64,000 nucleotides of DNA from an uncultured Caldisericales bacterium (lineage in GTDB: Bacteria > Caldisericota > Caldisericia > JAAYUI01), in assembly GCA_964639885.1 (NCBI GenBank), contig CAZXEH010000001.1, positions 151,205 through 215,204 of the forward strand. The letters run 5' to 3'. A program made the position numbers and the translations under genes. The notes beneath the pieces were generated by a model. The model ran no database searches. It had not been told where the DNA came from and saw only the letters and a program-made list of their open reading frames with translations. Every line of letters starts with the position of its first letter. Positions within the stretch are counted from its first letter, which is position 1. Shown piece by piece: positions 6,333 to 46,873 of the stretch.

Positions 6333-6341
6333 CAGGCAGGC

Positions 6342-7079: not shown

Positions 7080-7080
7080 A

Positions 7081-8314: not shown

Positions 8315-9146
8315 AATGTCAAGAGTGGTTGTTGCACTGATTCTAGCGCCGGTTGTGCTTGCTCTGACGTATCTTTCGGGCTGGCCTTTTCTTGTAATGG
8401 TCTGTGTTTTTTCGACGCTGGTGGTTTTCGAGGCTGCAAAGGTCATCAAAAAAACCGGCTCAAAACCAGAGATTCTTTTGCTTGTTCCGGCAAACCTTGC
8501 CATCCAGATTGCCGTCTATTTTCAATACTGGAAACTGATACCTTTCGTGGTTTTTGTATTCATCTCAATCCTGTTCATCATCGAAATCATCAAGGGAAAT
8601 ATAACAGGAGCAAGCGGCAGGATAGGAGCCAATCTCGTGGCCCTGGCAATCGGTAGTCTGCTTGCTTTCCTCACTGTCATTGAATTTGTAGGTGCAACAC
8701 CTGGTGAAAAAGCGCCTGGCTGGAGGCTTTTGTTTACACTCTTCTCCGGTGTATGGAGCTTTGACATCTTCAGCTATTATGGCGGAATCTTGGCCGGTAA
8801 ACACAAACTCGTTCCAAAGGTCTCGCCGGGCAAAACCTGGGAAGGACTCATAATTGGTTTTATCCTCGGATTGGCCGTCACAATCACCGTCGGCCTCTTT
8901 CTGATAATCGTAAACAGGGATGTTTTCCCAAACTTCGACCTTGTGAGGCTGATCGCTGGAGGAATTGTCATCATTGGAGCATCACTGGTCGGCGACCTGA
9001 GCGAGTCGGTTCTCAAAAGGGATGCCAACATGAAAGACTCCGGCAAGATTCTCATCGGTCACGGCGGCGTTCTGGACAGGCTCGATTCAATCCTCTTCGC
9101 TGCCCCTGCATTCTATTTCTTCCTGGAGAAGGTTGTTCTTCCTTGA
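8304..9146 (+). CDS. cdsA: Phosphatidate cytidylyltransferase
   Basis: C-terminal signature SVLKRDANMKDSGKILIGHGGVLDRLDS. Multi-TM protein. Confidence 0.9.
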   Translation: MEDKMSRVVVALILAPVVLALTYLSGWPFLVMVCVFSTLVVFEAAKVIKKTGSKPEILLLVPANLAIQIAVYFQYWKLIPFVVFVFISILFIIEIIKGNITGASGRIGANLVALAIGSLLAFLTVIEFVGATPGEKAPGWRLLFTLFSGVWSFDIFSYYGGILAGKHKLVPKVSPGKTWEGLIIGFILGLAVTITVGLFLIIVNRDVFPNFDLVRLIAGGIVIIGASLVGDLSESVLKRDANMKDSGKILIGHGGVLDRLDSILFAAPAFYFFLEKVVLP

Positions 9147-11577: not shown

Positions 11578-12626
11578 CAAAACCCGTCGCTGTCGGAAAA
11601 CTGGTCATTGGAGGCGGGGCACCTGTTGCCGTGCAGTCAATGACGAAAACCGACACGAGGGATGCAAAGGCAACAACAGAACAAATAAACCGGCTTGCAA
11701 GACTCGGCTGCGAGCTGGTGAGGTGTGCGGTTCCAGACATGGAAGCTGCACAGTCGCTTAAAGAAATAGTTAAATCGAGTCCAATTCCAGTGTGTGCCGA
11801 CATTCATTTCGATGGCAGGCTGGCGTTGGCTTCTCTCGATGCAGGAGTGCAGAAACTCAGGCTGAACCCGGGAAATATCCGCGACAAGGACATGGTCAGG
11901 GTCATCGCCAGGGAGTGCTTGCAAAGAGGGGTCCCAATCCGTATAGGTGTTAATGCAGGCTCCCTTCCCCACGGTGGAGACGTCGCCAAGGCGCTCGTCG
12001 ATGCCGCAATCAAAGAGGCAGGGATTTTGGAGGACGCAGGATGTGGATCTATCTTAATCTCGGTGAAAACCTCTGATATAGAGGCAACCATCAGAGCCAA
12101 CAGGCTCCTGGCACAATCCTGCAATTATCCTTTGCACATTGGTCTGACTGAAGCCGGCACACTGGTTTCGGGACTGATTCGATCAGCAAAAGCCCTGATG
12201 CCGCTCTTGGAAGAAGGCATCGGTGACACGATAAGGGTCTCATTGACTGAAGACCCTGAACAAGAGGTAAACGCAGCGTGGGAACTGCTTGAAGTGACAG
12301 GCAGGCGTCATGCAAGACCAATAATCATCTCTTGCCCCACATGCGGAAGGACTCACGGAAAGCTAAGGGAGAGAGTGCAGGAAGTCCAGCAGTCGCTCAC
12401 AGGCATAACAGGCATCACCGTTGCAGTCATGGGCTGCGAGGTCAACGGACCGGGTGAGGCGAAGGATGCCGACTGTGGGATAGCGTTTGGTGAGTCGAAG
12501 GCGATGGTGGTTGAGGAAGGCAATATCGTTGGGGTTTATCCACACGAAAAAGCCATTGAAACACTCACTCAAATCGCAAGGAGATTGTATGAATCAAAAA
12601 ATATATTGCGTGGGGCTAAGGCTTAA
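11574..12626 (+). CDS. ispG: 4-hydroxy-3-methylbut-2-enyl diphosphate synthase (GcpE)
   Basis: IspG-like sequence with a C-terminal CPTCGR cluster motif. It sits in the conserved dxr-rseP-ispG synteny. Confidence 0.92.
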   Translation: MTKPVAVGKLVIGGGAPVAVQSMTKTDTRDAKATTEQINRLARLGCELVRCAVPDMEAAQSLKEIVKSSPIPVCADIHFDGRLALASLDAGVQKLRLNPGNIRDKDMVRVIARECLQRGVPIRIGVNAGSLPHGGDVAKALVDAAIKEAGILEDAGCGSILISVKTSDIEATIRANRLLAQSCNYPLHIGLTEAGTLVSGLIRSAKALMPLLEEGIGDTIRVSLTEDPEQEVNAAWELLEVTGRRHARPIIISCPTCGRTHGKLRERVQEVQQSLTGITGITVAVMGCEVNGPGEAKDADCGIAFGESKAMVVEEGNIVGVYPHEKAIETLTQIARRLYESKNILRGAKA

Positions 12627-13668
12627 AGAGGACGACCAGCAGGAGGCGATGGAATCGTTTCGCGAGCTTGTTTCGCTTGCCCAGACGCTTGACTACACAA
12701 TTGTCGGCCAGAATTTCCAGGTAATCAGGGAGCCAAACCATTCCCATTTTATCGGCAAGGGCAAGGTGACCGAGATTGGGCTGGAAGTGACACAACTTAA
12801 GCCTGATGTTGTTTTTGTCGACTATCACCTCACACCGCTTCAGAGCCGAAACCTCGAGGAGGACTGGAATGTTCCGGTCATCGACCGGTCGGGGCTGATC
12901 ATTGAAGTGTTCAGAAAACACGCCACGACAAACGAAGGAAAGCTTCAGGTGGAGCTTGCCAAACTGAGGTACCAGCTTCCAAGGCTGACCCAGAAGAATC
13001 TGGCTTACGACCAGCAGGTTGGCGGTGGCGCTGTCACCAGAGGCTCCGGCGAAAGAGCCATCGAACTTGAAAAAAGGCATCTCAAGGAACGCATCAGGAA
13101 GCTCGAAGGCAGAATCAAGGTGCTCGCAAAAAACAGGCAGACACGGTCGAAGCAAAGGCTTAAAACGAATCTTCCGATTGTCGCACTAGTTGGTTACACG
13201 AACGCCGGAAAATCGACGCTCATGAACGCTCTGACCGGTGCAAACGTACTCATTGAAAACAAGCTGTTTTCGACGCTCGACACGACTGTCAGGCAGAGGA
13301 TGATCGGTGAAAGAAAAGTTCTTTTCGTCGATACGGTCGGTTTTATCAGGAACCTCCCGCACGAGCTGATTGCAGCGTTCAAATCAACGCTTGAGGAAGT
13401 CCTCTCCGCCTGGCTCATCGTCCATGTTTTCGACAGCTCTGACCTGGACTACGAAAGGCATATAGAGATCACCGAGAACGTTCTTGCCGATCTTGGGGCG
13501 GATTGCATTCCCAAGATGCTGGTGGCGAATAAATCTGATCTGATTGGTAGCGAACAAAGACAGCAAATTGAATCGATGGTTAAACCGGACATATTCATAA
13601 GCGCTTCAGAAAAATCCGGCACTGACGTACTGCTTGACATGGTTTCAAACCAGCTTGACGAACTTTGA
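12589..13668 (+). CDS. hflX: GTPase HflX
   Basis: G1 motif GYTNAGKSTL and an HflX-type N-terminal domain. The ORF track starts at 12487. The ATG at 12589 overlaps the ispG 3' end by 38 nt. Confidence 0.85.
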   Translation: MNQKIYCVGLRLKEDDQQEAMESFRELVSLAQTLDYTIVGQNFQVIREPNHSHFIGKGKVTEIGLEVTQLKPDVVFVDYHLTPLQSRNLEEDWNVPVIDRSGLIIEVFRKHATTNEGKLQVELAKLRYQLPRLTQKNLAYDQQVGGGAVTRGSGERAIELEKRHLKERIRKLEGRIKVLAKNRQTRSKQRLKTNLPIVALVGYTNAGKSTLMNALTGANVLIENKLFSTLDTTVRQRMIGERKVLFVDTVGFIRNLPHELIAAFKSTLEEVLSAWLIVHVFDSSDLDYERHIEITENVLADLGADCIPKMLVANKSDLIGSEQRQQIESMVKPDIFISASEKSGTDVLLDMVSNQLDEL

Positions 13669-13672
13669 ACTT

Positions 13673-13701
13673 AAGGCCTGTTTACCAAAAAAACAGGCCT
13701 T
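13673..13701. terminator. Hairpin AAGGCCTGTTT-N7-AAACAGGCCTT downstream of hflX; a weak or bidirectional terminator candidate
   Basis: Perfect 11-bp inverted repeat with no strong trailing T-run. Confidence 0.35.
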
Positions 13702-13737
13702 CCATTGTATAATCGTACAAAAGGAGATCGCATAACG

Positions 13738-16700
13738 ATGAAAAAAAGACTCTTGATGTTAATGGTTCTGCTCATGGTTTTCTCGCTTCTTCCCGGAATG
13801 TCTGGAAAGAGCGCAGCCAAAGTCACATTCTTCCAGCCTGATGTATCAGACAAGATTATAAACAGCTTCATTGATATTGACGCAAACAAGCTGGTTGATG
13901 TTGTCATCTGGGCCAACAGGCCAATTGACAGCGAACTGGGCACACTTTCCCAGTCGTTTACCAGCCACCCCAAATTTGGCTGTTACGTCGCCAAAGTCAC
14001 GAAATCAGAATTCGAATCACTCCAGCAGCTTCCGGGAGTGTCAAGGATAACTGAAAACTACAAGATTTCTGCTCCACAGGTCAAAGTCTCTGAACCTGAA
14101 GAAGCAACCAACAACTGGGGTCTTGATGATCTTGGAGTCAGGAAACTCTGGGAAAAGGGCATTACAGGCAAGGGCGTAACCGTTGGCCTTCTCGATACCG
14201 GTATTGATGCAGAACATCCTGCCCTCAAGAGAAAGGTTGAAAAGTTCGTCATGTTCCAGCTTGACGGCACAAAGGTTGACAGCAAGCCGTTTGACAATGT
14301 TGGTCATGGAACACACTGCGCCGGAATCATCTGCGGTTCAGACCCGAAGACAAAAAATGGTCCGGGTGTTGCTCCTGATGCAAAGCTCATCGTCGGTTCA
14401 GTCCTCCCAAACGGCAACGGTATGTTCGCCCAGGTTCTTGGAGGCATGGAATGGATTCTCGATCCTGACGGCGATCCGAAAACAGATGACGCTCCACCAA
14501 TCGTCTCAATGTCACTTGGCGGCATTCCCGACCCGGACATGACAAAAATTGCCGACATGTTCCAGAGACAGGGAGTGTTGCTGGTCTCATCAATTGGAAA
14601 CGACGGAGTTGGAGTCATGGGCTCACCGGGTTCAATCCCATCAGTCTTCTCGGTCGGTTCGTACGACAAGGACAGAAAGATTGCCTACTCTTCAGGTGGC
14701 GGAATCATCGACTGGGAGATGGATCCTTATCATGACATCTCAGTCACAAAACCAGACATTGCAGCACCAGGCGTTGATGTTTACTCATGCTTCCCGGGTG
14801 GTGAATATGTCGAGCTTTCTGGCACGTCGATGGCCTGCCCGCATGTTGCAGGCTCCTCTGCGCTGCTTCTGTCGGCAAACAAAGACCTCACAAACAATGA
14901 CATTGCCAATGTCCTCGCAAAATCAGCAGATGATCTAGGCAAAAAGGGCTGGGATCAGCGTTGGGGCAATGGCGCAATCAATGTAAACAGGGCATTCGAC
15001 AACCTTACAAAGCTTGCAAGACTCAAGGTCAATGTCAGCGAAAAACCGGAAGAACCGGTTGTCATCAAGATCAACGACAGCATTTACAGAACCGACAGGT
15101 CAACCGAGTTCATGCTCGATCCAGGCGATGTCAACGTTACTGTCACCTCATTCGGCTGCGCAACAGTCGACAAGAAGGTTACGCTCAAGGCCGGAACTCC
15201 CCAGACACTCTCGTTTGATGCCTCAAAGCTTCCGACCGTGACTTACAAGGGAACACTCGTTGGTGCCAACGGTGAAAACGCAATCGGTACAATCAAGATT
15301 CCGGGTGCCCCGAAGGTCTACACAACAGATGAGGAAGGCGATTTCGAGATCACACTTCCCAAGATGCAGTTCAATGCTGAATTCTGGGCGATTGGCTTCA
15401 AAACTTTGAAAGCTTCCATCGATCTTACGACAAACTACGAAAAAGTGATCAAGCTCAAACCGGCCAAGATTCTTGTTGCCACATCCCAGCTTGTCACTCC
15501 AAACTCATCGTTCAACCGCAGGTTTGACAAGTATTGCTACAGGGCGATGGATGACCTTGGACTCGATTATTGTTCGGTGAATCCGCGCGATTTCAAAGTC
15601 ACTTATGACATGATCAAGGGTTTCGACAGGGTTTATTGGTTTGCCGGTGAAGCCTCGCTTAAAGTCAACGATGCAAACACTCTTCACAAATATCTTCTCA
15701 ATGGAGGCAAGCTGCTTCTCTCTGGCAGAAACCTGCTTTATTACGAAGTCTACAGACGTGACCACAACTTCACCCAGTACCATTTCCAGGTCAGGGCTTT
15801 CCCTGATGACACCTACACAACAACTTCTGTTGGAATTCCAAAAGATGAGTTGGGCGACGGTCTCGCACTCTCACTTTCAGGCGGTGACGGCGCAACAAAC
15901 CAGATCGGTTATGACACCTTCAATGTTGCAAGCCCAGCTAAAAACGTGATTCCCTTCATGGCAGTCCTGACTCCAAGCGACAGGACTCTTGGCGACTACG
16001 GTTATTCTGGTGTCAGGATAATCTCGCCGACCTACCTTGGAGTTTATCTTTCATTCGGAATTGAAGGCATCGGAAACAATGCCGGCAGGAAAACCCTCCT
16101 CCAGAGAATTGATCAGTGGTTCAATTCGTATGGTGGCGTGAATGCTTCATTTGTTGATGACAAGGGCAAGCCGGTTTTTGCGAAGGTTTCAATCGAAGGA
16201 CTCCCCGACAACACAACCGACGACAATGGAAACCTCACCCTTTATTACCTTCCAAAGGGACAGGTTACGCTGAAGGTGAGTGCTGTTGGTTACGATGATC
16301 AGACCTTCAAGGCCGACATTGCAGAAGGCAAGATAAACAAAGTGCAGTTCCAGCTTGCAAACCCAAAGACCATCACAATCTCCGGCCAGGTCACAGACGC
16401 TGATGCAAAATCGCCGATGTCATGCCAGATAAAGGTTTATGGTAAGGATTCCCAGACCTTCAAGACGGACGATCAAGGAAAGTTCTCGATCACCCTTCCA
16501 AAGTTTGCCTACTCATTCAAGTTCTATAAAAAAGGCTATATCAACATCAATCAGCAGTACACAGATGATAACAGCAAGGTTGCCATCCAGATGGTCAAGT
16601 CGCCCAACTCTGTGGCATTTGTACAGCAGGTTTCACCAAGCTGGGAACCCATGGCTTTTGCGGGAATCACACAAACATATGAGAGGATTGCAAGAGAATC

Positions 16701-21280: not shown

Positions 21281-21353
21281 GGCGAGGTAGCTCAGTGGTC
21301 AGAGCACGCGGCTCATACCCGCGGTGTCGTGGGTTCAAATCCCTCCCTCGCCA
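21281..21353 (+). tRNA. tRNA with anticodon CAT (elongator Met or lysidine-Ile type). CCA is not encoded.
   Basis: Cloverleaf: acceptor GGCGAGG/CCTCGCC, D-arm GCTC-AGTGGTC-AGAGC, anticodon arm CGCGG-CTCATAC-CCGCG, T-loop TTCAAAT. The G1-C72 pair argues against an initiator tRNA. Confidence 0.85.
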
Positions 21354-36017: not shown

Positions 36018-36080
36018 ATTTCACCTTCGTAATAAAAAGAGCCGCTGATTTTGTCAGCGGCTCTTGTGATAGCTGGGTGC

Positions 36081-37586
36081 CTACCTGTTTGAAAGGGTCT
36101 GGACGACGTTGCCGTCTCTGGTCTTAAGCTCGATCTCCATCGGCATTGAGCCCGGGAGCGAGTGTGTGGCACAGGAGAAGCACGGGTCATAAGCCCTGAA
36201 GACCATTTCGATGAGGTTGAAGATACCATCGGAAACCTGGCCGTCCTTGATGAAAGCCTTTGCGGTTTTGGCGGTTTCGAAGCAGATGGCTCCGTGGTTG
36301 AAGGCTGTTGCAACGATCATGTTGGCCTTTGTTACAAAGCCGTTGTCGTCGCATTCGTAGTGGTGAACGATTGTTCCGCGTGGCGCCTCGATTGAACCCA
36401 TACCGAACTTCTTGTTTGTTTTTGGCATTGTTCTGACGTTTGGATCGAGGATCTGCGGATCGTTCATCAGTTCCTGAAGCCTTTCAGAGGCATAGAGGAG
36501 TTCAATGAGTCTTGCCCAGTGGTTGCCAAGCGAGAACTGAACCGGTCTTGGGCCGACTGTCTTCATGAAGCGATCCCATTCGGCGTTGGCAAGCGGTGTT
36601 GCCATTCCGTCCGAGACGTTGATTCTTGAGAGCGGAGCGACTCTTACGAGGCCTGACTTTGGGCCATCGGTGATGCCGTTCCAGCCCACTTTTTTGAGGT
36701 ACGGGAACTTGAGATAGCTCCACGGAAGAACCTGCTCACCGATGTAGTCGAGGTAGTCCTTTGCGTGGAAATTTGCAACTTCCTTGCCAGCCTGATCCAT
36801 GATTCTCATGTTGCCGGAGTAGAAGTTTGCATGATTTTTTTCATCAACCATGCCCATGTGGTAGCTGTCGCACTGGTACAGGTCTTTGTTTGTGATGATG
36901 TCGACGTATGCTTTGTTTCCAAGCACTACCTGGTTGAAGATGTCAATTGTCTTCTTTGAGAAGGCAATGAAATCCTTTGAGAGCTCGAGGATTTCTTTCT
37001 GCTGTGCCTTTGTGATCGGCTTGCTGATTCCGCCTGGGAGGCCAAACACCGGGTGGGTTGCCCTTCCACCGATGATTTCCTGAATCTTCTGGGCAAGAAC
37101 CCTCATGTGGAGGACTTCCTTGACCAGATCAGCACCGACGGCACCGATGAGGCCGATTACGTTTCTTTCGGCAACAGGTGCGCCTGGGCCAAGAACAAAG
37201 TCTGGAGCTGCAAGGGCGTAGAAATGGAGGATGTGTGAGTGGATCATGTGGGCGGCGTAGGCTGCTTCCCTGAGCATGTGGGCTGTCTTTGGTGGTTCGG
37301 CATCAAACATCATGTCCAGAACCTTGGATGAGGCGAGGTGGTGTGCCCACGGGCAGATGCCACACAGGGCGGTTACGATTCTTGGCATTTCTTCGACTGG
37401 TCTGCCTTTGCAGAATTCCTCGAAACCCCTGAGTTCGACTACCTGGAAATATGCTTCATCAACATTTCCCTTGTCATCGAGGAAGATTTCGATTTTTGCG
37501 TGGCCGTCAAGCCTCGAAACCGGCGAGACGGTCAGGTGGTTTGATTCCGCCTTGTGTGTCTTGTCAAAAATGATTGGTTCTGCCAT
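36081..37586 (-). CDS. mvhA: [NiFe] hydrogenase large subunit, MvhA-type (methyl-viologen-reducing / F420-non-reducing)
   Basis: N-terminal RxCGxC-like motif ALCGICPWAHH. C-terminal DPCFSCATH Ni-Fe ligand motif. Confidence 0.9.
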   Translation of the reverse strand: MAEPIIFDKTHKAESNHLTVSPVSRLDGHAKIEIFLDDKGNVDEAYFQVVELRGFEEFCKGRPVEEMPRIVTALCGICPWAHHLASSKVLDMMFDAEPPKTAHMLREAAYAAHMIHSHILHFYALAAPDFVLGPGAPVAERNVIGLIGAVGADLVKEVLHMRVLAQKIQEIIGGRATHPVFGLPGGISKPITKAQQKEILELSKDFIAFSKKTIDIFNQVVLGNKAYVDIITNKDLYQCDSYHMGMVDEKNHANFYSGNMRIMDQAGKEVANFHAKDYLDYIGEQVLPWSYLKFPYLKKVGWNGITDGPKSGLVRVAPLSRINVSDGMATPLANAEWDRFMKTVGPRPVQFSLGNHWARLIELLYASERLQELMNDPQILDPNVRTMPKTNKKFGMGSIEAPRGTIVHHYECDDNGFVTKANMIVATAFNHGAICFETAKTAKAFIKDGQVSDGIFNLIEMVFRAYDPCFSCATHSLPGSMPMEIELKTRDGNVVQTLSNR

Positions 37587-37588
37587 CT

Positions 37589-38605
37589 TTATTCCTCCAC
37601 ATCTTCCACAACTTCGTTGACCAGAGCCGAACCGAAGCTGTAGCGGTAGAATGTTCCGAGCGGGTCTGGAACCATTGCTGCGATTTTGTCGACTTCGTTC
37701 TCTTCCAGGTTGAGTTCGTCATCCCTGTAGTCGAGAACCGAGGCCAGACCGGAGAGGGTTGAGAGACCCTGATCCATGACGTGACCGGTTGGGCCATAAC
37801 ATCCCCTGCATGGCATGTTGCCGATGTTTGTGCACTGTGCACCACAACCGGCTCTTGTTGCTATGCCCGAGCAGATGATGCCCTGATCAAGGAAGCACTT
37901 TTCCTCATCAAGTGGAACCATGTGTGGTCTGTTGATCTTCTTGATGTTGTAACGGTCTGATTTCTTCCTCTTGCACTCATCGCACAGCGACTTCTCCGAG
38001 GCGATGATTGTGCCTTTTGGCGGAAGCGGTTTGCCGGCTGTTACAAAGCCGTGGACTGCCATGATAAGTGCTGTGATGGTCGGAACTGACGGCGGGCAGC
38101 CTGGAAGATAGTAGTCAACGTCGACGATCTCGTCCATCCTGACGATCTTCTGGTTTGCCTTTGGAAGGGTGAGGATGTTGCCCTTTGGGGTTTTCCACTC
38201 GTAGTTCGGGCGTTCGCCCTTTTCGTTTGTGGTTGAGGCTGTTTCTCCGTAAACGGTGTCCCAGATGGTCTTCATTCCACCCTTTACCGAGTTGGCAAGT
38301 GACGGGATGCCTCCAAATGCGGCACAGGCACCAAAAGCAACCATGAGGGCTGATTTCTTTCTGAGGAGTTTGACCATGTGGACGTTTTCCTCGTCCCTCA
38401 TGCAGCCGTGTACGAGGGTTGCAGTGATGTAACCGTCTGGCATGGCTTCAACGTCTTTGTATTTTGCGTCCATGTATGTCGGGCCGAATGCAAGATCGGC
38501 GATGCCGAAGAGGTCGAGCAGGAGTGAGTCGATGTCGAGCAACGCCATGTCGCAGCCGTCGCAGGTTGCAGATCTGTTGACAGCAATTCTAATTTTATCA
38601 GACAT
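37589..38605 (-). CDS. mvhG: [NiFe] hydrogenase small subunit, MvhG-type; cytoplasmic, with no Tat signal
   Basis: N-terminus SATCDGCDM. Multiple Cys clusters for three FeS centres. No twin-arginine leader. Confidence 0.88.
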   Translation of the reverse strand: MSDKIRIAVNRSATCDGCDMALLDIDSLLLDLFGIADLAFGPTYMDAKYKDVEAMPDGYITATLVHGCMRDEENVHMVKLLRKKSALMVAFGACAAFGGIPSLANSVKGGMKTIWDTVYGETASTTNEKGERPNYEWKTPKGNILTLPKANQKIVRMDEIVDVDYYLPGCPPSVPTITALIMAVHGFVTAGKPLPPKGTIIASEKSLCDECKRKKSDRYNIKKINRPHMVPLDEEKCFLDQGIICSGIATRAGCGAQCTNIGNMPCRGCYGPTGHVMDQGLSTLSGLASVLDYRDDELNLEENEVDKIAAMVPDPLGTFYRYSFGSALVNEVVEDVEE

Positions 38606-39053
38606 GAGCTTCCTCCTTCTTGTTCTTTGCCTCGATGAGTTTTTTCCTGATCGGGGAGATGCCCAGTTTGTCGATTTCCTTTGAGAATTCTCTCATCGTG
38701 TCGGCGAACTTCTGGCCTTCTGAGGCTGATATCCACTCAAGCCTGAAACGCTTTGAGGAAATTCCGAGCTGTTTGATCATCCTTTCAAGGAGGGCGATTC
38801 TGCGCCTTTCCCTGTAGTTGCCGGAGATGTAGTGGCAGTCGCCTGGGTGGCAGCCTGCAACGATGACTCCGTCTGCGCCCTTTGAGAAGGCTCTCAGGAC
38901 GATTTCAGGATCGATTCTGGCTGAACACATTGTTCTGATCATCCTGAAGTTTGCAGGCATCTGGAATCTTGACACACCGGCAAGGTCTGCACCGGCGTAA
39001 GTGCACCAGTTGCATGAAAGAACTACAATGAGCGGTTTTCTCTCTTCACTCAC
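38598..39053 (-). CDS. mvhD: MvhD, the [2Fe-2S] hydrogenase delta subunit that links hydrogenase to HdrA
   Basis: LIVVLSCNWCTYAGADLAG...CSARID...GADGVIVAGCHPGDCHY, the typical MvhD pattern. Confidence 0.85.
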   Translation of the reverse strand: MSEERKPLIVVLSCNWCTYAGADLAGVSRFQMPANFRMIRTMCSARIDPEIVLRAFSKGADGVIVAGCHPGDCHYISGNYRERRRIALLERMIKQLGISSKRFRLEWISASEGQKFADTMREFSKEIDKLGISPIRKKLIEAKNKKEEAHV

Positions 39054-42000
39054 AGAGCCACCTCCTCCAACACGGCATCAACCATGTTGACAAGCTGTTT
39101 TGTTGTGAATCCGTACTGTTCCATGGCACCGGATGGACAAGCACCGGCACAGGCACCGCAACCCTTGCAGAGAGCCTCGTCAACCTTGACTCTTCCGCGT
39201 TCGGTTTCCTTGTCGATGATTTCGAGCGAGAGCGCCTGGTATGGGCACATCGGGATGCAAATTCTGCAACCGTCGCAGACATCTGGATTGACCGTTGCGA
39301 TTGCCGCTTCAGCCATGAGGGTGTCCTTGCTGATGATTGTGAGGGCTCTTGCCGATGCAGCCGATGCCTGGGCGATTGTCTCGTCGAGCATCCTCGGGTG
39401 GTATGCCATGCCTGCAAGGAAGATGCCTTCTGTTGCAAAGTCGACCGGTCTGAGTTTGACGTGCGCTTCAAGGAAGAAGCCTTCGTCGTTGGTCGGAACC
39501 TTGAGGAATGTTGACAGAATCTTGTTGTCCGGGTTGGCTTCAACGCCTGCCGAAAGAACAACCATGTCTGCCGGAATCTCAAGCCAGCCATGAAGAACCG
39601 GGTCATGGGTTCTGACTACCAGCTTGCCGTCTTTTTCGATGACTTCCGGCTGGTTCTCGGGATCCCATCTTGAGAAGATGACGCCTTTTTCACGAGCCTT
39701 GTTGTAATAGTGTTCCCTGAAGCCGTAGGTTCTGACGTCTCTGTAAAGGACAAACACTTCAGCCTTCGGGAAGTCTTCCTTGAGAAGGTTTGCGTTTGCC
39801 ATTGCCGTTGAGCAGCAAATCCTTGAACAGTAGGGGTGTTCGTCGTTTCTTGAACCAACGCACTGGATCATTACCACAGTCTTGATGTCTTTTGGAAGTT
39901 CTTTTTTGATGAGCTTTTCCTCAAGCTCGATCTGGGTGATGACCTTTGGATTCTTGCCGTAGAGATATTCTTTTGGCTTGTGCTGGTTGGCGCCGGTTGC
40001 AACGATGATTGAGCCGACCGAGAGTTCCTTTTTCTCGTTGGTTTTTGTGTTCTTGATGACCGGCACAAAGTTTCCAACCGAACCTGAAAGGTCTGAAAGG
40101 ACGGTGTTCTTGAGAACGGTGATGTTTTTGTTTCTCTCAACCTCGAAAATCAAGCTCTTGAGGTATGCCTGCATGTCGCCAACTTCGTTTGTGTAGTAGG
40201 AGTGGTTGAGGTTTCCACCGAGTTTTTCATCTCTCTCGATGACTGTGACCGGGAAGCCGTTCTTTGCGATGTCGAGTGCGGCATTGAGTCCGGCAGCTCC
40301 GCCACCGATGACAAGCGCAGACTGGGTAACCGGAAGCGATGCCCTCTTGAGCGGTTGGAGCATTCTGGTCTTTGCGATTGCAACCCTGACAAGGTCTTTT
40401 GCTTTCTGTGTGGCTTCAGCCGGGGACTGCTGGTGAATCCATGAGCAGTGTTCGCGGATGTTTGCCATTTCGACAAGGTACGGGTTGAGGCCGGTTTCTC
40501 TCAGGGTTTCCTGGAAGAGCGGCTCGTGCGTCCTTGGGGTGCAGGAGGCAATGACCACGCGGTTGAGGTTGTTTTCCTTGATCATCTTGGAGATGAGGCT
40601 CTGTGTGTCCTGTGAGCAGGTGTAGAGGTTGTGCTCTGCGATGATGACGTTCGGAAGTGTTCTTGCATAGTTCATTACGTCGACAACGTCGACCGTGTTT
40701 GCAATGTTGATGCCGCAGTGGCAGACAAAGACGCCAATCCTCGGCTCTTCACCGGCAACGTCTTTTTCTGGCGGATATTCCTTTGCCACAAGGGCTGTCC
40801 TTCTGCCTTCCGCACAGTCGGCGCCGGCTTTTGCTGCTGCACCGATTGCCTGGGCGACTGTTTCAGGAATGTCCTTCGGGCCTTCAAACACGCCGGCAAC
40901 GTAGATTCCCTGACGGCTTGTCTGGAGCGGGTTGGTGTAGTCGGTCTTTGCAAAACCGTCTTCAGTGAGGTCGAGTCCGAGATCGTCGGCAAGTTTTTTC
41001 ACCGATTCGGAAATCTGGAGTCCGACGCTCAGGATGACGAGGTCAAACATCTCGGTCTTTTCAGAGCCGTCTTCGTCCTCGTACCTGATGATGACATTGT
41101 GGCTGTTCGGGTCTTCCATGACTTCTGCGATGCGGTTTCTGATGTAGCGGATTCCCCACTCGCCTTTTGCCCTGTTGTAGTACTGTTCAAAGCCCTTGCC
41201 AACCGCCCTCATGTCCATGATGAAGATGGTTGATTCAATGTCTGGAACGTGTTCCCTGGTCATGATGGCTTCTTTGGTCGCGTACATGCAGCATACGCCT
41301 GAGCAGTAGGGTTTGTTGATCTTTGGATCCCTTGAGCCAACGCACTGAATCCAGGCAATCTTCTTTGGCACCTTGCCATCTGACGGCCTGAGCACGTGTC
41401 CCTGATATGGGCCTGAGGCGTTGAGGATTCTCTCGTACTGGATCGAGCTCAATACATTGGGGAATCTGCCGTAGCCGTATTCCTGCTTGAGTGTCGGGTC
41501 GAATTCCTCGAATCCCGGGCAAAGAATGACCGAGCCGATGTCCAGAGTTTTCTCGGTTTCGGCGTCGTCATACTTTACCGCCTTGGCGAGGCAGACGTTT
41601 TCGCACATCTGGCATCCGATGCAGGCTTCGCGGTCGATTGTGGCAACCAGCGGAATGGCCTGTGGGAATTCGATGTAGATCGCTTTCCTGTTGACAAGCG
41701 ATTCGTTGAATGCGGATTCTCTTTCGATCGGGCAGTAGACCATACAGGTTCCACAGCCGGTGCAAAGCGATCTGTCAACAAATCTTGGGTGCACCTTGAC
41801 TGTTGCCTTGAAATCACCTGGTCTGCCGGTGATCTTTGAGACCTCGGCGTTCGGGATGATGTCGATGTTCTGGTTTCTGCCGCAAGCAACGAGCTTGGGT
41901 GACAGGATGCACATGGAGCAGTCGTTGGTTGGGAATGTCTTGTCGAGCTGCGCCATTACACCGCCGATTGCGGGAGATTTTTCAACCATGTAAACATGGA

Positions 42001-42100
42001 AGCCGGCTTCCACCAGGTCGAGCGATGTCTGGATTCCTCCGATGCCACCGCCGACAACCAGGACTGAACCAGCGCCTTTTACGTTCTTTTTAGTGTCCAT
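39050..42100 (-). CDS. hdrA: Extended HdrA-like flavoprotein (1016 aa): tandem duplicated FAD/thioredoxin-reductase-like HdrA modules plus multiple 4Fe-4S ferredoxin domains
   Basis: Two dinucleotide-binding motifs (VLVVGGGIGG and LVIGGGAAGLNAALDIA). HdrA-type Cys clusters including a C-terminal 2x[4Fe-4S] CDGCRICIPMCP / CKGCGACAGACP. Confidence 0.85.
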   Translation of the reverse strand: MDTKKNVKGAGSVLVVGGGIGGIQTSLDLVEAGFHVYMVEKSPAIGGVMAQLDKTFPTNDCSMCILSPKLVACGRNQNIDIIPNAEVSKITGRPGDFKATVKVHPRFVDRSLCTGCGTCMVYCPIERESAFNESLVNRKAIYIEFPQAIPLVATIDREACIGCQMCENVCLAKAVKYDDAETEKTLDIGSVILCPGFEEFDPTLKQEYGYGRFPNVLSSIQYERILNASGPYQGHVLRPSDGKVPKKIAWIQCVGSRDPKINKPYCSGVCCMYATKEAIMTREHVPDIESTIFIMDMRAVGKGFEQYYNRAKGEWGIRYIRNRIAEVMEDPNSHNVIIRYEDEDGSEKTEMFDLVILSVGLQISESVKKLADDLGLDLTEDGFAKTDYTNPLQTSRQGIYVAGVFEGPKDIPETVAQAIGAAAKAGADCAEGRRTALVAKEYPPEKDVAGEEPRIGVFVCHCGINIANTVDVVDVMNYARTLPNVIIAEHNLYTCSQDTQSLISKMIKENNLNRVVIASCTPRTHEPLFQETLRETGLNPYLVEMANIREHCSWIHQQSPAEATQKAKDLVRVAIAKTRMLQPLKRASLPVTQSALVIGGGAAGLNAALDIAKNGFPVTVIERDEKLGGNLNHSYYTNEVGDMQAYLKSLIFEVERNKNITVLKNTVLSDLSGSVGNFVPVIKNTKTNEKKELSVGSIIVATGANQHKPKEYLYGKNPKVITQIELEEKLIKKELPKDIKTVVMIQCVGSRNDEHPYCSRICCSTAMANANLLKEDFPKAEVFVLYRDVRTYGFREHYYNKAREKGVIFSRWDPENQPEVIEKDGKLVVRTHDPVLHGWLEIPADMVVLSAGVEANPDNKILSTFLKVPTNDEGFFLEAHVKLRPVDFATEGIFLAGMAYHPRMLDETIAQASAASARALTIISKDTLMAEAAIATVNPDVCDGCRICIPMCPYQALSLEIIDKETERGRVKVDEALCKGCGACAGACPSGAMEQYGFTTKQLVNMVDAVLEEVAL

Positions 42101-42116: not shown

Positions 42117-42893
42117 TCAGGCCTGAATGTACTGGAAGTATCTGCCGGACATGCCAGCCTCATGGACCATTCCCTTATGCTCGAGAAGCTGAACAAGACT
42201 GAACACCTTTGGTTCAGGCATGCCAGCCTGGGTAGCAATCTGCGGTATGGTCATCGGAACTTTTTCAATTGTTGAGAGGACGTGGTAGAGGTTGTATTTG
42301 TCCTCGATTGAATTGAGGATCATCTCATCAAACTGCTCTGCTGAAATGGTCTCGTTGTAAGTGTTGCCAGAGATCGTGAGCTTTGGTTCCTTGCCGACCA
42401 ACCAGCCGATTTCGGGATCGTTGGTGACTTTTCTGGCACAGCAGATGCGGTGTCTTGTCTCTTCAGGGGTGAGGGCTTCAGACGCTGCGGTTCCCAATGG
42501 ACCCAGTGAGAAGACCTTGTTCCTGAACTTGTCCAACGGATCGGCGATCAGCTGGAGGAAGCCGAGAGAGAGTTCAACCCTGCCTGGATCAAAACCTGCA
42601 AAACTGAGGAGGTTCTGGGCAAAGTGAACGCGTCTCTGGGCGATGAGGTTGCCTGTCCTGTAGTTGCACTCAAGCGGAGAGCATCCGGCTACGAAAACGC
42701 CGTCGGCTCCCATCTCAAGGGCTTCAAGGATGTTGTCGGCAAGGATTCTGCCTGAGCAGATGACCCTGACGATCTTGGAGATTCCCTTGTAGGGTGTTCT
42801 GACCGGGCCCACGAGGTCGCCTGAGGCCGAGGAGCACCAGTTGCAGACAAACGCCACTACTTTTGGTACATATCTTTTTTTAGTATCTGCCAT
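42117..42893 (-). CDS. MvhD/FlxD-like domain fused to a C-terminal winged-helix-like domain
   Basis: N-terminus VVAFVCNWCSSASGD...CSGRI...GADGVFVAGCSPLECNY (MvhD fold). The C-terminal ~100 aa carries the HTH-like LYHVLSTIEKVPMTIPQIATQAGMPEPKVFSLVQLLEHKGMV. Confidence 0.65.
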   Translation of the reverse strand: MADTKKRYVPKVVAFVCNWCSSASGDLVGPVRTPYKGISKIVRVICSGRILADNILEALEMGADGVFVAGCSPLECNYRTGNLIAQRRVHFAQNLLSFAGFDPGRVELSLGFLQLIADPLDKFRNKVFSLGPLGTAASEALTPEETRHRICCARKVTNDPEIGWLVGKEPKLTISGNTYNETISAEQFDEMILNSIEDKYNLYHVLSTIEKVPMTIPQIATQAGMPEPKVFSLVQLLEHKGMVHEAGMSGRYFQYIQA

Positions 42894-42902
42894 CTGTCCT
42901 CC

Positions 42903-43562
42903 TTAAAAGCTCTCAATGACTTCCCTGACGTGGTCGGTCAGCTTGTCGGTGGTGTGGAAGTTCATGAAGATCGCACCATACGGGCAGGAGGTTGCACAAA
43001 GTGAGCATCCCCTGCACAGATCACGGTTTGTTCTCGACTTGAGACCGCGTTCTGTCTGAACCATTGTGATGGCCGTAAATGGGCAGACTTCGACACAGAG
43101 GCCACAACCAACGCAAAGGTTGTCGTCTCTCATCTCGACTTCTTCGAAAATGAGGGCGTCCTTCGGGCAGGCATCAACACAAGCCGGTACATCGAGGTCA
43201 AGGCAGCGGTCGCACTTGAGAACGTGTGTGTAGTCTTCGTTTGGAAGGACTCCGCCGTACGGGCAGTTCATTACACACATCCAGCAGGCGATGCACTTGT
43301 CGTAGTCAATGTTGACCATGCCGGTTTCAGTGTCATAGTGCATTGCTCCTGTCATGCAGGCGGTGACGCACGGGGCATCATCGCAGTGACGGCAGCGGAG
43401 CGGATATGGCCTCGTTCCGGCAAGTTCGACGTGAACCCTCTGTTTTGTGAGTTCCTTCTCTATGCCGTCACCGTTGGTGTCGGCCGAGTGCTTCTTGAGG
43501 CATGCCCTTTCGCAGAGCCTGCATCCAACGCACTTTTCAAAATCCACTAGGATAGTTTTCAT
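42903..43562 (-). CDS. Polyferredoxin (multiple 4Fe-4S dicluster domains), FlxB/C- or MvhB-like
   Basis: At least four CxxCxxCxxxCP-type motifs (CVGCRLCERAC, CIACWMCVMNCP, CVGCGLCVEVCP, CRGCSLCATSCP). Confidence 0.8.
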   Translation of the reverse strand: MKTILVDFEKCVGCRLCERACLKKHSADTNGDGIEKELTKQRVHVELAGTRPYPLRCRHCDDAPCVTACMTGAMHYDTETGMVNIDYDKCIACWMCVMNCPYGGVLPNEDYTHVLKCDRCLDLDVPACVDACPKDALIFEEVEMRDDNLCVGCGLCVEVCPFTAITMVQTERGLKSRTNRDLCRGCSLCATSCPYGAIFMNFHTTDKLTDHVREVIESF

Positions 43563-43575
43563 TTCTCCAAGCCTC

Positions 43576-44811
43576 CTAGAAGATCAGAAGTGCGAGTTTG
43601 TCTTCAAGCACTTCTTCCTTGTGTCCTTTTATTGTGATCTGCTTTTTGACCAAACCGTTGATGGTTCCGATTGTGGCGATCTTTCCAACGAAGAGGGCGC
43701 CGGCAATCCTGTCATTCTGGATGACAACCTTGCGGTAAAGACCATCCTTGATGTTCTGTGAAATCATTACTTCGTGGGTTCCGCCTGTTGGTCTCACATC
43801 TCCGATGCTGATGCAGGAGAGGCCGTAGAACTGGAACGAGTTCATCCAGAACCAACCGCGGTATTCTTTTGGAATGCCGACCATGTTGAGTCCGGCAACC
43901 TGTCCCTGTTCGGAAGCCCTTGGCCAGACCAGGTTTGTTGTCGATCTACCAAACGATTCCTCGTAGGTCTCGGTGCAGTCGCCTGCTGCCCAGACATTTG
44001 GAATGTTTGTTCTCATGTGCTTGTCAACGACAATGCCTGATCCGCACTTGATTTCTGTGCCTCTAACGTATTTGAGGTCTGGGGCTACGCCTTTTGCCAG
44101 AACGACGATGTCTGTTTCGTGTTCGTCGCCTGATTCGAGAACCACGCCTTCAACCTTGCCGTTGCCGGTGATTGCGGTAACAGAAGTGTTTAGGATGATC
44201 CTGATTCCCTTGCGGTCGAGTCTCCTCTTGACGATTGATGCTGCTGTTTCGTCAAGGAGCTGGCTCATTATCTGTCCTGATGCGATTACACATGTTACAT
44301 CGACGCCAGCATCAACGAGACCCTGACAGGCCTTGAGACCGACTAGTCCGCCACCGACCACGACAGCCCTTTTGACCTGACCTTTTTTGATCATTTCCAT
44401 GATCTCAAGTGTCGGCCCAAGGTGTGTGAAGGTGAAGACGCCAGGAAGGTTTGCGCCTGGTGTGTCTGGGATTTGTGTCTTTCCGCCTGTTGCGATGAGG
44501 AGCTTCTCATAAGCGATTTCAGTTCCGTCGTTTAGGGCGAGTTTATTTTCAATCGGCATGTACTTGATGACAGGCTGACCGAGCATGAGCTTTATGTTTC
44601 TCTTGTCGTACCAGTCTTTTTCGTGGTAGTACATCTTGTCCTGAGTGGTCTCTCCGCCGATGAGATAGGAGATAAGCGGTCTGGAGTAGCTGAGATAAGG
44701 CTCTTCGGAGATGATCAGGATTTGGTTTTCCTTGTCGTGGAGGCGGATGGTGTCGGCGGCCCTGAGTCCGGCGATTCCATTACCTACGATGACATATTTG
44801 TATTTTTCCAT
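43576..44811 (-). CDS. FAD-dependent pyridine nucleotide-disulfide oxidoreductase family protein (NAD(P)H-binding flavoprotein; probable NAD(P)H input module)
   Basis: FAD motif YVIVGNGIAGLRAA. NAD motif AVVVGGGLVGLKACQGL. C-terminal WAAGDC. Confidence 0.8.
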   Translation of the reverse strand: MEKYKYVIVGNGIAGLRAADTIRLHDKENQILIISEEPYLSYSRPLISYLIGGETTQDKMYYHEKDWYDKRNIKLMLGQPVIKYMPIENKLALNDGTEIAYEKLLIATGGKTQIPDTPGANLPGVFTFTHLGPTLEIMEMIKKGQVKRAVVVGGGLVGLKACQGLVDAGVDVTCVIASGQIMSQLLDETAASIVKRRLDRKGIRIILNTSVTAITGNGKVEGVVLESGDEHETDIVVLAKGVAPDLKYVRGTEIKCGSGIVVDKHMRTNIPNVWAAGDCTETYEESFGRSTTNLVWPRASEQGQVAGLNMVGIPKEYRGWFWMNSFQFYGLSCISIGDVRPTGGTHEVMISQNIKDGLYRKVVIQNDRIAGALFVGKIATIGTINGLVKKQITIKGHKEEVLEDKLALLIF

Positions 44812-44819
44812 CGCCCCTC

Positions 44820-45728
44820 CTACTGTGCCGCGGCTGCCGGAGCCGGAGCGAACTTTTCAAGCAATGATTTCGGCTTGATCTTGTGCTGTGAGAAGCCGAG
44901 ATCGGCATCGGGAATGCCAAGTGCGAGTCCAAGAATCTGCGGGAGGAAGAGAACCGGAATGTCAATTGCTTTTCCGGTGTCACGCTCGAGCTTTTTCTGG
45001 TGGGCTTCGTACTGGATGTTGCAGAACGGGCAGTGGAGAACGAGTCCGTCAACGTCGCCTGCATACTGTTTGATTCTGTCGAGTTTGCCGGCTGCGATTG
45101 AAACGGCCGTGTTTTCCTTGATGCCAAGGATACCGCCGCCGCAGCACTCGTTCGGGTTGGCGATTGTCTTGACGGTTGCGCCTGTTGCCTTGATGAGTTC
45201 ATTGAGAGTGGCAGGAGCTTCCGGATTGTCAAACTTGCCAAACACTTCTGACGGCTTGAGATAGTGGCAGCCGGAGTGGGTGACGAAGGTTGCGCCCTTG
45301 AGCGGTTTTACAACCTTTTTCTTGATGCCTGCCGGGCCAATTTTTTCAGCCAGGAGCTTTGTGAAATGGATGACTTTTGCTTCGCCCTTGTAGCCTTTTT
45401 TACCAATCTTGGCAAGTTCGGCGTTGATTTTTTCACGTTCGGCCTTGTCGTGTCTGAGGTGTTCAGAAACTTCCGAGAGGGTTGAGTTGCAGGCGGAGCA
45501 GAGAGTGACTATGTCGAGACCCATCTCTTCAGCCTGTGCCAGCGCTCCGGCGGACATGACCATTGAGGCGTGCCTGTTGACGTTGACCATTGGCATTCCG
45601 CAGCATGAGGCGCCTGGCATGTCGACAAGTTCTATTCCGAGCTTCTCAGCGACTTTCCTTGCAGAAAGCTCATAGTGGAGAGCGCGTGCTGGTATGGTGC
45701 AACCTAGAAAGAGAGCGTACTTCATCAC
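44820..45728 (-). CDS. hdrB: Heterodisulfide reductase subunit B (two CCG domains)
   Basis: Cys-rich CCG motifs (ASCCGMP...TLCSACN and ECCGGGILG...LHCPFCN). Confidence 0.88.
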   Translation of the reverse strand: MMKYALFLGCTIPARALHYELSARKVAEKLGIELVDMPGASCCGMPMVNVNRHASMVMSAGALAQAEEMGLDIVTLCSACNSTLSEVSEHLRHDKAEREKINAELAKIGKKGYKGEAKVIHFTKLLAEKIGPAGIKKKVVKPLKGATFVTHSGCHYLKPSEVFGKFDNPEAPATLNELIKATGATVKTIANPNECCGGGILGIKENTAVSIAAGKLDRIKQYAGDVDGLVLHCPFCNIQYEAHQKKLERDTGKAIDIPVLFLPQILGLALGIPDADLGFSQHKIKPKSLLEKFAPAPAAAAQ

Positions 45729-46237
45729 TTGGCCTCCTTCTTAAGATCGTTTGATACAAGAACCGCCTCGATGAATTCCTTCTTGTTTTCGAGGGCTGGA
45801 AGTCCCATTTTTGCTCTCTTTTTGTTGTCGAAATCGGAGACCTCGTACATCCTGCCAAAGTTTGCCAGCACGTCTATCTGTGGAGTGTATGAAGGATGCA
45901 TGTGACCCTCGCGTGTTGCCAGATTTTTGAGCGCAAACATAAGGTCTGTAATCCCGACATCCTGTGGACAGCGTTCCTGGCAGGTGTAGCAATAGGTACA
46001 CAACCAGATGGGTTCATTGCCCAGCACTTCGTCTCTCATGCCCAAAAGCACCATTCTGATGATTTTTCTTGGATTGTAACTCTCATCGGTTGCTCTTACC
46101 GGACAGGAGGCTGTGCAGGTACCGCACTGGAAACAGCTTTTGATGCGTTCACCACCGGCAAGGCCAGCAACCTCGTACTTGAAGTTGGGGTTCAGGCTTT
46201 TTACCGGGATGGTGGCGGCGTCTTTCTGCTCACTCAC
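45725..46237 (-). CDS. hdrC: Heterodisulfide reductase subunit C (2x[4Fe-4S])
   Basis: CFQCGTCTASCP and CTYCYTCQERCP motifs. Overlaps the hdrB start. Confidence 0.88.
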   Translation of the reverse strand: MSEQKDAATIPVKSLNPNFKYEVAGLAGGERIKSCFQCGTCTASCPVRATDESYNPRKIIRMVLLGMRDEVLGNEPIWLCTYCYTCQERCPQDVGITDLMFALKNLATREGHMHPSYTPQIDVLANFGRMYEVSDFDNKKRAKMGLPALENKKEFIEAVLVSNDLKKEAK

Positions 46238-46411
46238 AAAATCACCCCTTTCAACAAATAATAATTGTCAATCTTTTTTAGAAAAAATGCTTTACACACA
46301 AACAAGATTGTATTTTCTAAAAAACTAGCAGTCAAGTGGAAATCGAAGGGTTTCAACGGTTAAAATAGGGTAAATGATCCAACCAAATTTTTGTCAATGC
46401 TGTATTCCTGT

Positions 46412-46429
46412 TTGTCAAGGCTTGACCAA
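46412..46429. promoter_or_regulatory. Palindrome TTGTCAAG-G-CTTGACCA in the divergent hdrC/46457 promoter region
   Basis: GTCAAG-G-CTTGAC is perfect at 46414-46426. Further TTGTCAA copies lie at about 46263 and 46391. It overlaps the -35 of the plus-strand promoter. Confidence 0.35.
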
Positions 46430-46450
46430 TAGAGATGGTTTCTATAGAAT
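46422..46450 (+). promoter_or_regulatory. Sigma70-like promoter TTGACC-17-TAGAAT placed 6 nt before the ATG at 46457 (leaderless candidate)
   Basis: Hexamers at 46422-46427 and 46445-46450. No SD. Confidence 0.5.
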
Positions 46451-46456
46451 CTGCAC

Positions 46457-46873
46457 ATGAACGAGATAGATAAAACCACTGCCCAGCAACCAGCACCAAG
46501 ACCGGAAATCAACGAAGATTCCAGACTTTTTTCAGTCCTTTCACATGCCACGATGGGGCTTGTCGGACTGCTAGTAATGTTCGGAGTGTTTGAACCAGTC
46601 AGGGGAAACCGATTTGCCGGCAAGCACGCAGTGTCATCGGTGATAAATGGAGCTATCATGGCCGTTGTTTTGCTGCTGTGGTACCTGATATATCAGGGTG
46701 TTGGCCAGTTCACTGGACCACAGAATGTTTTCTTCGTCTACCAGTATGGCCTGATGGGCATGCTGGTTATGTTCTATGGAACCGCCTTCTGGAGCGCAAT
46801 CAAGGCAAACAAGGGTGGCTATGCCAACATCATCTGGGTATCCCCAATAGTTAACAGGATTTTCAGAGGCTAA
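46457..46873 (+). CDS. Small integral membrane protein (DUF4870-like guess)
   Basis: 138 aa with three hydrophobic helices after a polar N-terminal tail. Confidence 0.45.
   Translation: MNEIDKTTAQQPAPRPEINEDSRLFSVLSHATMGLVGLLVMFGVFEPVRGNRFAGKHAVSSVINGAIMAVVLLLWYLIYQGVGQFTGPQNVFFVYQYGLMGMLVMFYGTAFWSAIKANKGGYANIIWVSPIVNRIFRG

Follow-up and report, generated by a model that had tools for sequence, protein, structure and literature searches.

In a 64,000-nucleotide stretch of DNA from an uncultured Caldisericales bacterium (GenBank assembly GCA_964639885.1, contig CAZXEH010000001.1, positions 151,205 to 215,204 of the forward strand), referred to below as the window, one gene of an hdr operon (42117–42893, minus strand) encodes a long MvhD-type protein, MvhD-L, in which the familiar [2Fe-2S] domain continues into a C-terminal extension, the tail, that ends in a winged helix-turn-helix (wHTH). 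We consider it probable that MvhD-L is an electron-relay and adaptor protein, whose tail is a docking or scaffold module in a multi-module, HdrA-based (flavin-based electron-bifurcating) complex. What carries this reading is a set of observations on the domain architecture of the protein, on the fold of its tail, on the conservation of that tail across a whole family and on its gene neighbourhood, which follows a simple rule. The architecture had been spotted in an earlier annotation of the window made from the letters alone (the sequence-only reading), which saw an MvhD domain fused to a winged-helix C-terminal domain inside the hdr operon, and this now stands on a Pfam FlpD match, a confident model of the tail and the order of the genes in the operon.

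The gene is an open reading frame (ORF) with an ATG start, coding for 258 amino acids (aa) followed by a stop codon, and has full-length homologues. The sequence-only reading had set this length against the ~140 aa that are usual for MvhD, and the solved MvhD chains (8rvu_F, 5odc_D and 7bkb_F) are indeed 129–141 aa long; the C-terminal peptide that it quoted is present in the translation of the minus-strand ORF. The MvhD/FlpD [2Fe-2S] domain occupies aa 1–135 (42489–42893, minus strand) and is recognised by Pfam, by alignment with solved MvhD and by Foldseek. The Pfam FlpD/MvhD profile (PF02662) matches aa 12–109 (E 1.8e-29, 102.7 bits for a cutoff of 22.3), and its C-terminal quarter, which goes unmatched in the sub-clade of the window, is modelled there as the expected helix (aa 117–130). 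Matches in NCBIfam are of the MvhD type only (VhuD and the MvhD part of HdrA2). Five cysteines in CxxC, C and GCxxxxC motifs (Cys17, Cys20, Cys46, Cys71 and Cys76) are invariant in the alignment of the protein (A1) and line up with 5odc_D and 8rvu_F, two structures that Foldseek also returns for the MvhD fold (E 1.8e-7 and TM-score normalised to the target 0.74 for 5odc_D; TM-score 0.78 on the same footing for 8rvu_F). Since the solved MvhD align to aa 8–134 of MvhD-L only, the protein carries an extension of ~123 aa (aa 136–258), so that the extension suspected earlier is real but slightly longer than the ~100 residues then given for it.

In a full-length model built on a 12-sequence alignment (predicted local distance difference test, pLDDT, of 79) the tail is confident as far as the wing. 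A fold search with the whole protein was uninformative on the tail because the MvhD half dominated its PDB matches, a problem that was solved by modelling the tail on its own. The tail-only AlphaFold model, built on an alignment of 78 family members (A3), has a mean pLDDT of 92.6 and a predicted TM-score of 0.80, and ends in a confident wHTH rather than another fold or disorder, in line with what the sequence-only reading expected of a structure prediction. From its N-terminal end, the model runs through three short helices and a loop into a long helix, then by way of a short strand and two further helices to a β-hairpin wing, and it falls into two parts. The first, a helical sub-domain (aa 136–198; 42300–42488, minus strand), has helices at aa 143–157, 160–167 and 169–175 and a long helix from aa 185, and carries the motif EIGWLVGKE...GNTYNET in the window, for which the family consensus is RxRWLxGKE...GNVYGEK. 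The second, the wHTH proper (aa 199–258; 42120–42299, minus strand), consists of the end of the long helix, the strand, helices H2 (aa 216–223) and H3 (aa 227–239) and the wing (aa 243–257).

Foldseek places the tail model closest, among PDB entries, to regulators of the ArsR/SmtB (NolR, SmtB, CzrA) and MarR families (probability 1.00, best E 1e-3), with a root-mean-square deviation of 1.6–2.3 Å over ~60 residues for several MarR entries, and O-methyltransferases are matched too, by their winged-helix dimerisation domains. When PDB sequences are searched with the family profile, ArsR-family chains are found as well (PH1932, HlyU, NolR and CzrA, E ~1e-6), over profile positions ~64–120 only; the first half of the tail, the helical sub-domain, has no Pfam match and no relative among the PDB sequences searched, which do not include BamF. 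Pfam sees HTH_IclR at aa 213–244, marginally over the cutoff (22.7 bits for 22.0) and in the HTH part only, without the IclR effector domain; TrmB (21.1 for 25.6) and MarR_2 (15.4 for 27) stay below their cutoffs in MvhD-L, and other family members give weak HTH_5 and HTH_20 matches.

The strongest conservation in the tail lies off the surface with which a winged helix reads DNA. Within A3, the best conserved columns of the helical sub-domain are R163 (87%), G167 (79%), N177 (95%), Y179 (78%) and E181 (81%), together with K168 and G180, and further conserved positions are E199 (80% Glu) and, in the wing, a P-x-Y. Those residues of the recognition helix (H3) that face the solvent are weakly conserved, and basic residues at its end are found in part of the family. 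The sub-clade of the window departs from the consensus by G163, N180, K199 and F253, and the arginine and glutamate that it replaces by glycine and lysine, R163 and E199, may be in contact and covary. The GNVYGEK loop, with its high conservation, has the look of a functional site, and this leads to a first alternative, namely that the winged helix is an allosteric or ligand-binding domain that binds a small molecule or a partner (a DsrC-like protein or a ferredoxin) and tunes electron flow. Winged helices do have non-DNA roles, as in the dimerisation domains matched above or in DsrD, a winged-helix protein that activates DsrAB, and bacterial HdrBC-like subunits act on protein disulfides. However, no ligand-binding family was matched in Pfam, NCBIfam or the PDB profile search, and no Cys/His cluster is conserved in the tail across the family (Cys150 and Cys151 of the window are not conserved), which leaves this alternative rather unlikely.

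The tail is one conserved module, for which Pfam has no model. Its conservation among homologues and the existence of orthologous fusions in other genomes, two things that the sequence-only reading had proposed to look into, are both evident. Nine full-length homologues at 60–91% identity and one at 32% retain the entire tail; the close ones are 258–261 aa long, the best named relative is a protein from a Caldisericia metagenome-assembled genome (MAG; 64% identity), and the 32% homologue is named ‘delta subunit/predicted transcriptional regulator’ by the Joint Genome Institute (JGI). Searching 1.84 billion representative proteins with a profile restricted to the tail gives 260 with E ≤1e-3 (93 with E ≤1e-10), most of them matched over nearly all 123 positions, and the tail is recognisable at 18–30% identity across archaea and bacteria, in hosts that include Bathyarchaeia, Thermoplasmata, Archaeoglobi, Chloroflexota, Bacillota and Desulfobacterota. 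It could be suspected, from the borderline Pfam HTH score in the window protein, that an ArsR-type gene was joined to mvhD by accident, and that MvhD-L is a meaningless fusion, a mis-assembly or a decaying remnant. We give almost no credence to this, as against it stand the full-length tail kept in close homologues and recognisable in distant ones, the strongly conserved motifs, the confident fold and the presence of the same structure in an orthologous operon.

In every multi-domain match of the profile, the tail lies directly C-terminal to an FlpD/MvhD domain, including proteins in which the pair is part of something larger, such as HdrA-Fer4-MvhD-tail (P0054, 810 aa), Fer4-MvhD-tail (P0133, P0154, P0089 and P0168) and MvhD-tail-Fer4-GltD-like NAD(P)H flavoprotein (P0167). 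Many of the shorter matches are truncated gene calls. In an unrelated protein of 788 aa (P0195), eight tandem repeats match the profile in its winged-helix half only, and this half is therefore not family-specific by itself. One sub-clade, with long MvhDs of 252 aa (Desulfobacca-type), comprises more than 120 clusters.

In the window, MvhD-L belongs to a tightly packed minus-strand operon with the order hdrC, hdrB, PadH-like, PadI-like, MvhD-L, double hdrA, short mvhD, mvhG and mvhA. Its gene is separated by 9 nucleotides (nt) from the PadI-like gene upstream, and its stop by 16 nt from the start of the double hdrA, which makes it an integral part of the operon. The first gene (45725–46237) encodes an HdrC-like ferredoxin (Pfam Fer4_8 and Fer4_17), upstream of which is a promoter-like site, TTGACT-17-TACAAT (46307–46335, a consensus match only), and is followed by an HdrB-like protein with two CCG domains (44820–45728; Pfam CCG in two stretches, and HdrB-like_C). 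Then come a PadH-like FAD/NAD(P)H oxidoreductase of 411 aa (43576–44811; Pfam Pyr_redox_2, E 4e-57, and Rubredoxin_C; NCBIfam PadH-like, E 1.8e-82, below cutoff) and a PadI-like polyferredoxin of 219 aa with four [4Fe-4S] motifs (42903–43562; Pfam Fer4 families in four stretches; NCBIfam PadI-like, E 2.5e-28, below cutoff). Downstream of MvhD-L, the HdrA of 1016 aa (39050–42100) has two FAD-binding Rossmann starts (aa ~13 and ~595) and Pfam FAD/NAD-binding families in two stretches; as it matches solved HdrA (~650 aa) in three stretches (E 8e-221), it is a fused double HdrA. The remaining genes encode a canonical short MvhD of 151 aa (38598–39053; Pfam FlpD over 1–123 of 123 positions, E 1.4e-53), an MvhG-like protein (37589–38605) and an MvhA-like [NiFe] hydrogenase large subunit (36081–37586), the last two being ORFs whose counterparts in an orthologous Caldisericia locus (L003) match Oxidored_q6 and NiFeSe_Hases, respectively. 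A terminator-like hairpin with a 12-bp stem and a T run (36037–36065, minus strand) after mvhA is the likely end of the operon. A ten-gene operon is common to the window and the Caldisericia locus. The two MvhD paralogues, long and short, are 31% identical and stand on either side of the double HdrA. This triad, which recurs in many archaeal and bacterial loci, suggests that a pseudo-dimeric HdrA offers two non-equivalent adaptor sites. Elsewhere in the window, a tRNA-Met (CAT; 21281–21353, plus strand) is the single match of Rfam and ARAGORN, which found no rRNA and no riboswitch in the 64 kb.

How general is this neighbourhood? When species-representative genomes were scanned for the motif [EKV]GNVYGEK, derived from eight sequences, 48 loci were obtained, spread over at least 10 lineages (Bathyarchaeia, Thermoplasmata/Methanomassiliicoccales, Hadarchaeota, Odinarchaeota, Archaeoglobi, Chloroflexota, Bacillota, Thermodesulfobacteriota, Syntrophobacterales and WOR-3). 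Among the 51 tail genes that they contain, 47 have a downstream gene on the same strand, and in 41 of the 47 that gene encodes HdrA: 34 are at least 750 aa long (~1000 aa where complete), five are cut by a contig end and two are shorter. The window and its Caldisericia orthologue obey the same rule, with HdrA right after the tail gene. The long HdrA is in turn followed by a short MvhD in 16 loci and by a second long MvhD in two. The upstream gene is variable and encodes Qmo/HdrA-like pairs, double HdrA, HdrA-GltD fusions or, in L029 as in the window, a PadI-like ferredoxin. Since the upstream partner varies and HdrA stays, the constant partner of the long MvhD is the double HdrA, and the long MvhD usually has a large flavoprotein module on either side. 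In two loci, from Desulfobacca acetoxidans (L059) and another member of the Desulfobacterota (L060), it is flanked by two double HdrAs, which fits a coupler between modules. The D. acetoxidans cluster (5942–15898 of its locus) reads metF, double hdrA, long mvhD, double hdrA, a 152-aa ORF, metV-like and metF, and resembles the MetFV-Hdr-MvhD methylene-tetrahydrofolate reductase system of acetogens, from which it differs by its two double HdrAs.

The sequence-only reading had offered, as one of two possible functions, that the C-terminal part is a novel docking domain linking HdrA to the NAD(P)H module. As to the partners, HdrA is upheld, in the form of a double HdrA, but the NAD(P)H module is not a constant partner, the upstream gene being variable. 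FlxD of the NADH-dependent FlxABCD-HdrABC complex of Desulfovibrio is an MvhD-type link between an NAD(P)H-oxidising module and HdrA, and MvhD-L resembles it in being MvhD-type, bacterial and placed between two such partners. However, FlxA (NAD_binding_1/FAD_binding_6 and Fe-S), FlxB and FlxC (Fer4_22) are not found in the window, which has the PadH-like Pyr_redox_2 protein and the PadI-like polyferredoxin instead. Where FlxA-, FlxB- and FlxC-like genes are present in related loci, they adjoin the short MvhD and not the long one; in a Desulfobacterota-type genome of 5.6 Mb, as in archaeal loci, the short MvhD has FlxB-, FlxC- and FlxA-like genes and hdrCB after it. In a Thermoplasmata MAG (L026), both MvhDs flanking the double HdrA bear the tail (9611–10387 and 13521–14291), and the second adjoins MvhG/MvhA, which means that the tail is not confined to NAD(P)H-linked adaptors. 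A specific tie of the tail to NAD(P)H modules was thus rejected as a general rule, on the strength of the varying upstream partners, of the Flx-type loci, which pair the short MvhD with the NAD(P)H module, and of this Thermoplasmata locus.

The closest counterpart of this architecture comes from the class II benzoyl-CoA reductase (BCRII, BamBCDEFGHI) of Geobacter metallireducens, for which cryo-electron microscopy models have been deposited with a preprint (PDB 29QY, 29RC and 29RN). Its BamF exceeds the usual length of an MvhD adaptor by more than 100 aa, has a winged HTH that ‘interfaces with BamI’, the Fe-S subunit of the NADH module (BamGHI), and connects this module to BamE, ‘a fused HdrA dimer’ (bioRxiv 10.64898/2026.04.10.717634). 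The gene (Gmet_2083, bamF) had been listed in 2007 as ‘hydrogenase, delta subunit; HTH motif’ (PMC1924859), and our literature search found no paper linking MvhD with a winged helix other than the 2026 preprint. Compared by architecture, BamF and MvhD-L share (i) an MvhD [2Fe-2S] domain and an extension of more than 100 residues that includes a wHTH, (ii) an HdrA-type partner that is a fused dimer of ~1000 aa (BamE and the 1016-aa HdrA of the window) and (iii) a place between the HdrA core and an input module that oxidises NAD(P)H and has an Fe-S subunit as connector. They differ in that BamF has a selenocysteine (Sec19) where the window protein has Cys throughout, that bamF follows bamE whereas the MvhD-L gene precedes hdrA, and that the input module is NuoEFG/HydBC-like (BamGHI) in BCRII and PadH/PadI-like in the window, which moreover has no tungsten AOR module and has an extra short MvhD and a [NiFe] hydrogenase. 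No Geobacter and no bam cluster is among the 48 loci of the motif scan, and a homologue search with an L047-type protein reached Desulfobacca and Syntrophobacter, with no Bam contexts. As for canonical MvhD (of the methanogen complexes MvhAGD-HdrABC, Fdh-Hdr and Elp-Hdr; PDB 5ODC, 7BKB and 8RVU), it shares with MvhD-L the FlpD fold, the five cysteines and the adjacency to hdrA, but is tail-less and has as partner a single-length HdrA (~650 aa) that dimerises, where the 258-aa MvhD-L is paired with a double HdrA.

Selenocysteine also occurs in the family, with consequences for annotation. In the GC(H)xGxCHY motif of the long MvhD of L005, the first Cys is replaced by an in-frame TGA (selenocysteine; 9917–9919), and L006, L007 and L047 have an in-frame stop at the same position, owing to which gene callers split the long MvhD into pieces of 67–74 aa and 164–184 aa. 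The HdrA genes that adjoin these stop-split long MvhDs are split likewise. N-truncated calls that begin with MCSGR were considered as possible cases of selenocysteine in the CNWC motif (comparable to Sec19 of BamF), and this was rejected for P0260, the frame of which reads back through an intact CNWC, meaning that its start was miscalled.

The docking reading is preferred because the tail is always attached to MvhD and nearly always has a double HdrA gene as neighbour, because conservation peaks in the helical sub-domain and in the P-x-Y of the wing, because charge is not conserved and because there is a precedent in BamF. Docking is thus the better supported of the two functions proposed by the sequence-only reading, although the domain is not novel in kind, BamF having been annotated in 2007 and solved in 2026. 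Several points weigh against it: (i) the winged helix keeps ArsR-like sequence signatures, and the net charge of the wHTH core is at least +3 in about a third of the family; (ii) two Chloroflexota MAGs encode the tail by itself, as an ORF of ~120 aa with its own start (L024, 9986–10345; L033, 9998–10363) that lies between the double HdrA and a giant gene for an HdrA(-GltD)-MvhD fusion, and a separate ORF of this size is also how a small autoregulator is expected to look; (iii) the 48 loci were found with a single motif, so that the neighbourhood sample covers the mainstream of the family; (iv) the likeness to BamF is one of architecture; and (v) we infer, rather than observe, the partner of the tail, which may be the double HdrA, the PadI-like protein or both.

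The other function proposed at the outset was that of a redox-sensing regulator of the cluster, that is, a transcription factor whose [2Fe-2S] domain senses redox while its winged helix binds operator DNA, either exclusively or as a moonlighting activity in the style of PutA. Besides the charge of some members and the stand-alone ORFs just mentioned, this idea draws on the genuinely ArsR/MarR-like wHTH fold, on the HTH_IclR match, on the basic residues with which H3 ends in some members, on the labels ‘predicted transcriptional regulator’ or ‘ArsR family regulator’ given by JGI to several members and on a palindrome, TTGGTCAAGcCTTGACAAA (46411–46429), that is unique in the window and lies in the divergent promoter region. 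The tail is like the ArsR/SmtB and MarR regulators in its fold and in the sequence pattern of H2, H3 and wing, but unlike them it lacks flanking dimerisation helices and a conserved basic surface, has the extra GNVYGEK helical sub-domain and is attached to MvhD. Neither the ArsR α1/α5 nor the MarR N- and C-terminal helices are found: the chain stops at the second strand of the wing, without the α5 or C-terminal helix that would follow it in a dimerising regulator, and what precedes the wHTH is the helical sub-domain peculiar to the family. The net charge of the wHTH core ranges from -6 to +9 across the family (wing mean -0.15) and is 0 in the window, where that of the tail is -5. The module always occurs in the company of MvhD/HdrA genes, in some cases within redox proteins of 700–800 aa, its strongest conservation is where DNA would not be read and, in BamF, the sole solved relative by architecture, the wHTH binds a protein.

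The palindrome, which the sequence-only reading had proposed as the target and whose link to the system is only supposed, fares no better. It overlaps the -35 of a promoter-like site on the plus strand (46422–46450), that of the divergent gene, and it has no counterpart upstream of hdrC in the orthologous Caldisericia locus; it was rejected as an operator on both grounds. The divergent plus-strand ORF (46457–46873) encodes a protein of 138 aa, apparently a membrane protein, and the divergent intergenic region (46260–46440) has three copies of TTGACAA. With charge not conserved, conservation off the recognition helix, no dimerisation helix after the wing and no conserved palindrome, the regulator finds little support and seems improbable. 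Its PutA-like form, in which the winged helix would be buried in the assembled complex and, when the protein is free or its cluster changes state, would bind DNA and autoregulate the operon, is more improbable still. If true, it would couple complex assembly or redox state to transcription, and would define a widespread, unrecognised class of Fe-S sensor-regulators in anaerobic archaea and bacteria.

How might a docking adaptor of this kind work? The N-terminal domain of MvhD-L would bind a [2Fe-2S] cluster on its conserved cysteines and, judging by homology, pass single electrons between an upstream ferredoxin-type domain and the flavin of HdrA. In the window, the PadH-like flavoprotein would, by its family, oxidise NAD(P)H, and the electrons may then run by way of the PadI-like polyferredoxin to the long MvhD and its [2Fe-2S] cluster, as gene order and the wiring of BCRII suggest, and from there to, or in the reverse sense from, the flavin and Fe-S system of the double HdrA. 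The tail would anchor this branch by binding the double HdrA and/or the PadI-like subunit, a role to which the neighbourhood rule and the BamF precedent point. The short MvhD would, by analogy with methanogen structures, join MvhAG to the other adaptor site, and HdrBC would be the disulfide-reducing branch. The picture would be that of a pseudo-dimeric HdrA wired to two different partner modules by two non-equivalent adaptors, with HdrBC as a further branch. The cluster, the contact surface of the tail and the direction of electron flow are here predictions from sequence, and the net direction is more than a sequence can tell.

HdrA-based electron-bifurcating complexes have a central place in the energy conservation of anaerobes, and the wiring between their modules is under active structural study. 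The architecture described here is already exemplified by BamF; what is new is the extent of the family and its tie to double HdrA. The combination of MvhD and a winged helix, so far seen only in BamF, is that of a large, unannotated family (whose members go by the NCBI name ‘hydrogenase iron-sulfur subunit’), which, in many uncultured lineages of archaea and bacteria, is paired with genes for a fused double HdrA, often with a long and a short MvhD flanking the same HdrA gene. There is a caution in this, since some pipelines annotate long MvhDs as ArsR-type regulators, and there is also a testable rule, namely that a long adaptor would be the mark of a complex whose pseudo-dimeric HdrA couples to two different partner modules. 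For the Caldisericales bacterium of the window, the prediction that follows is a complex that unites HdrABC with a [NiFe] hydrogenase and an NAD(P)H module.

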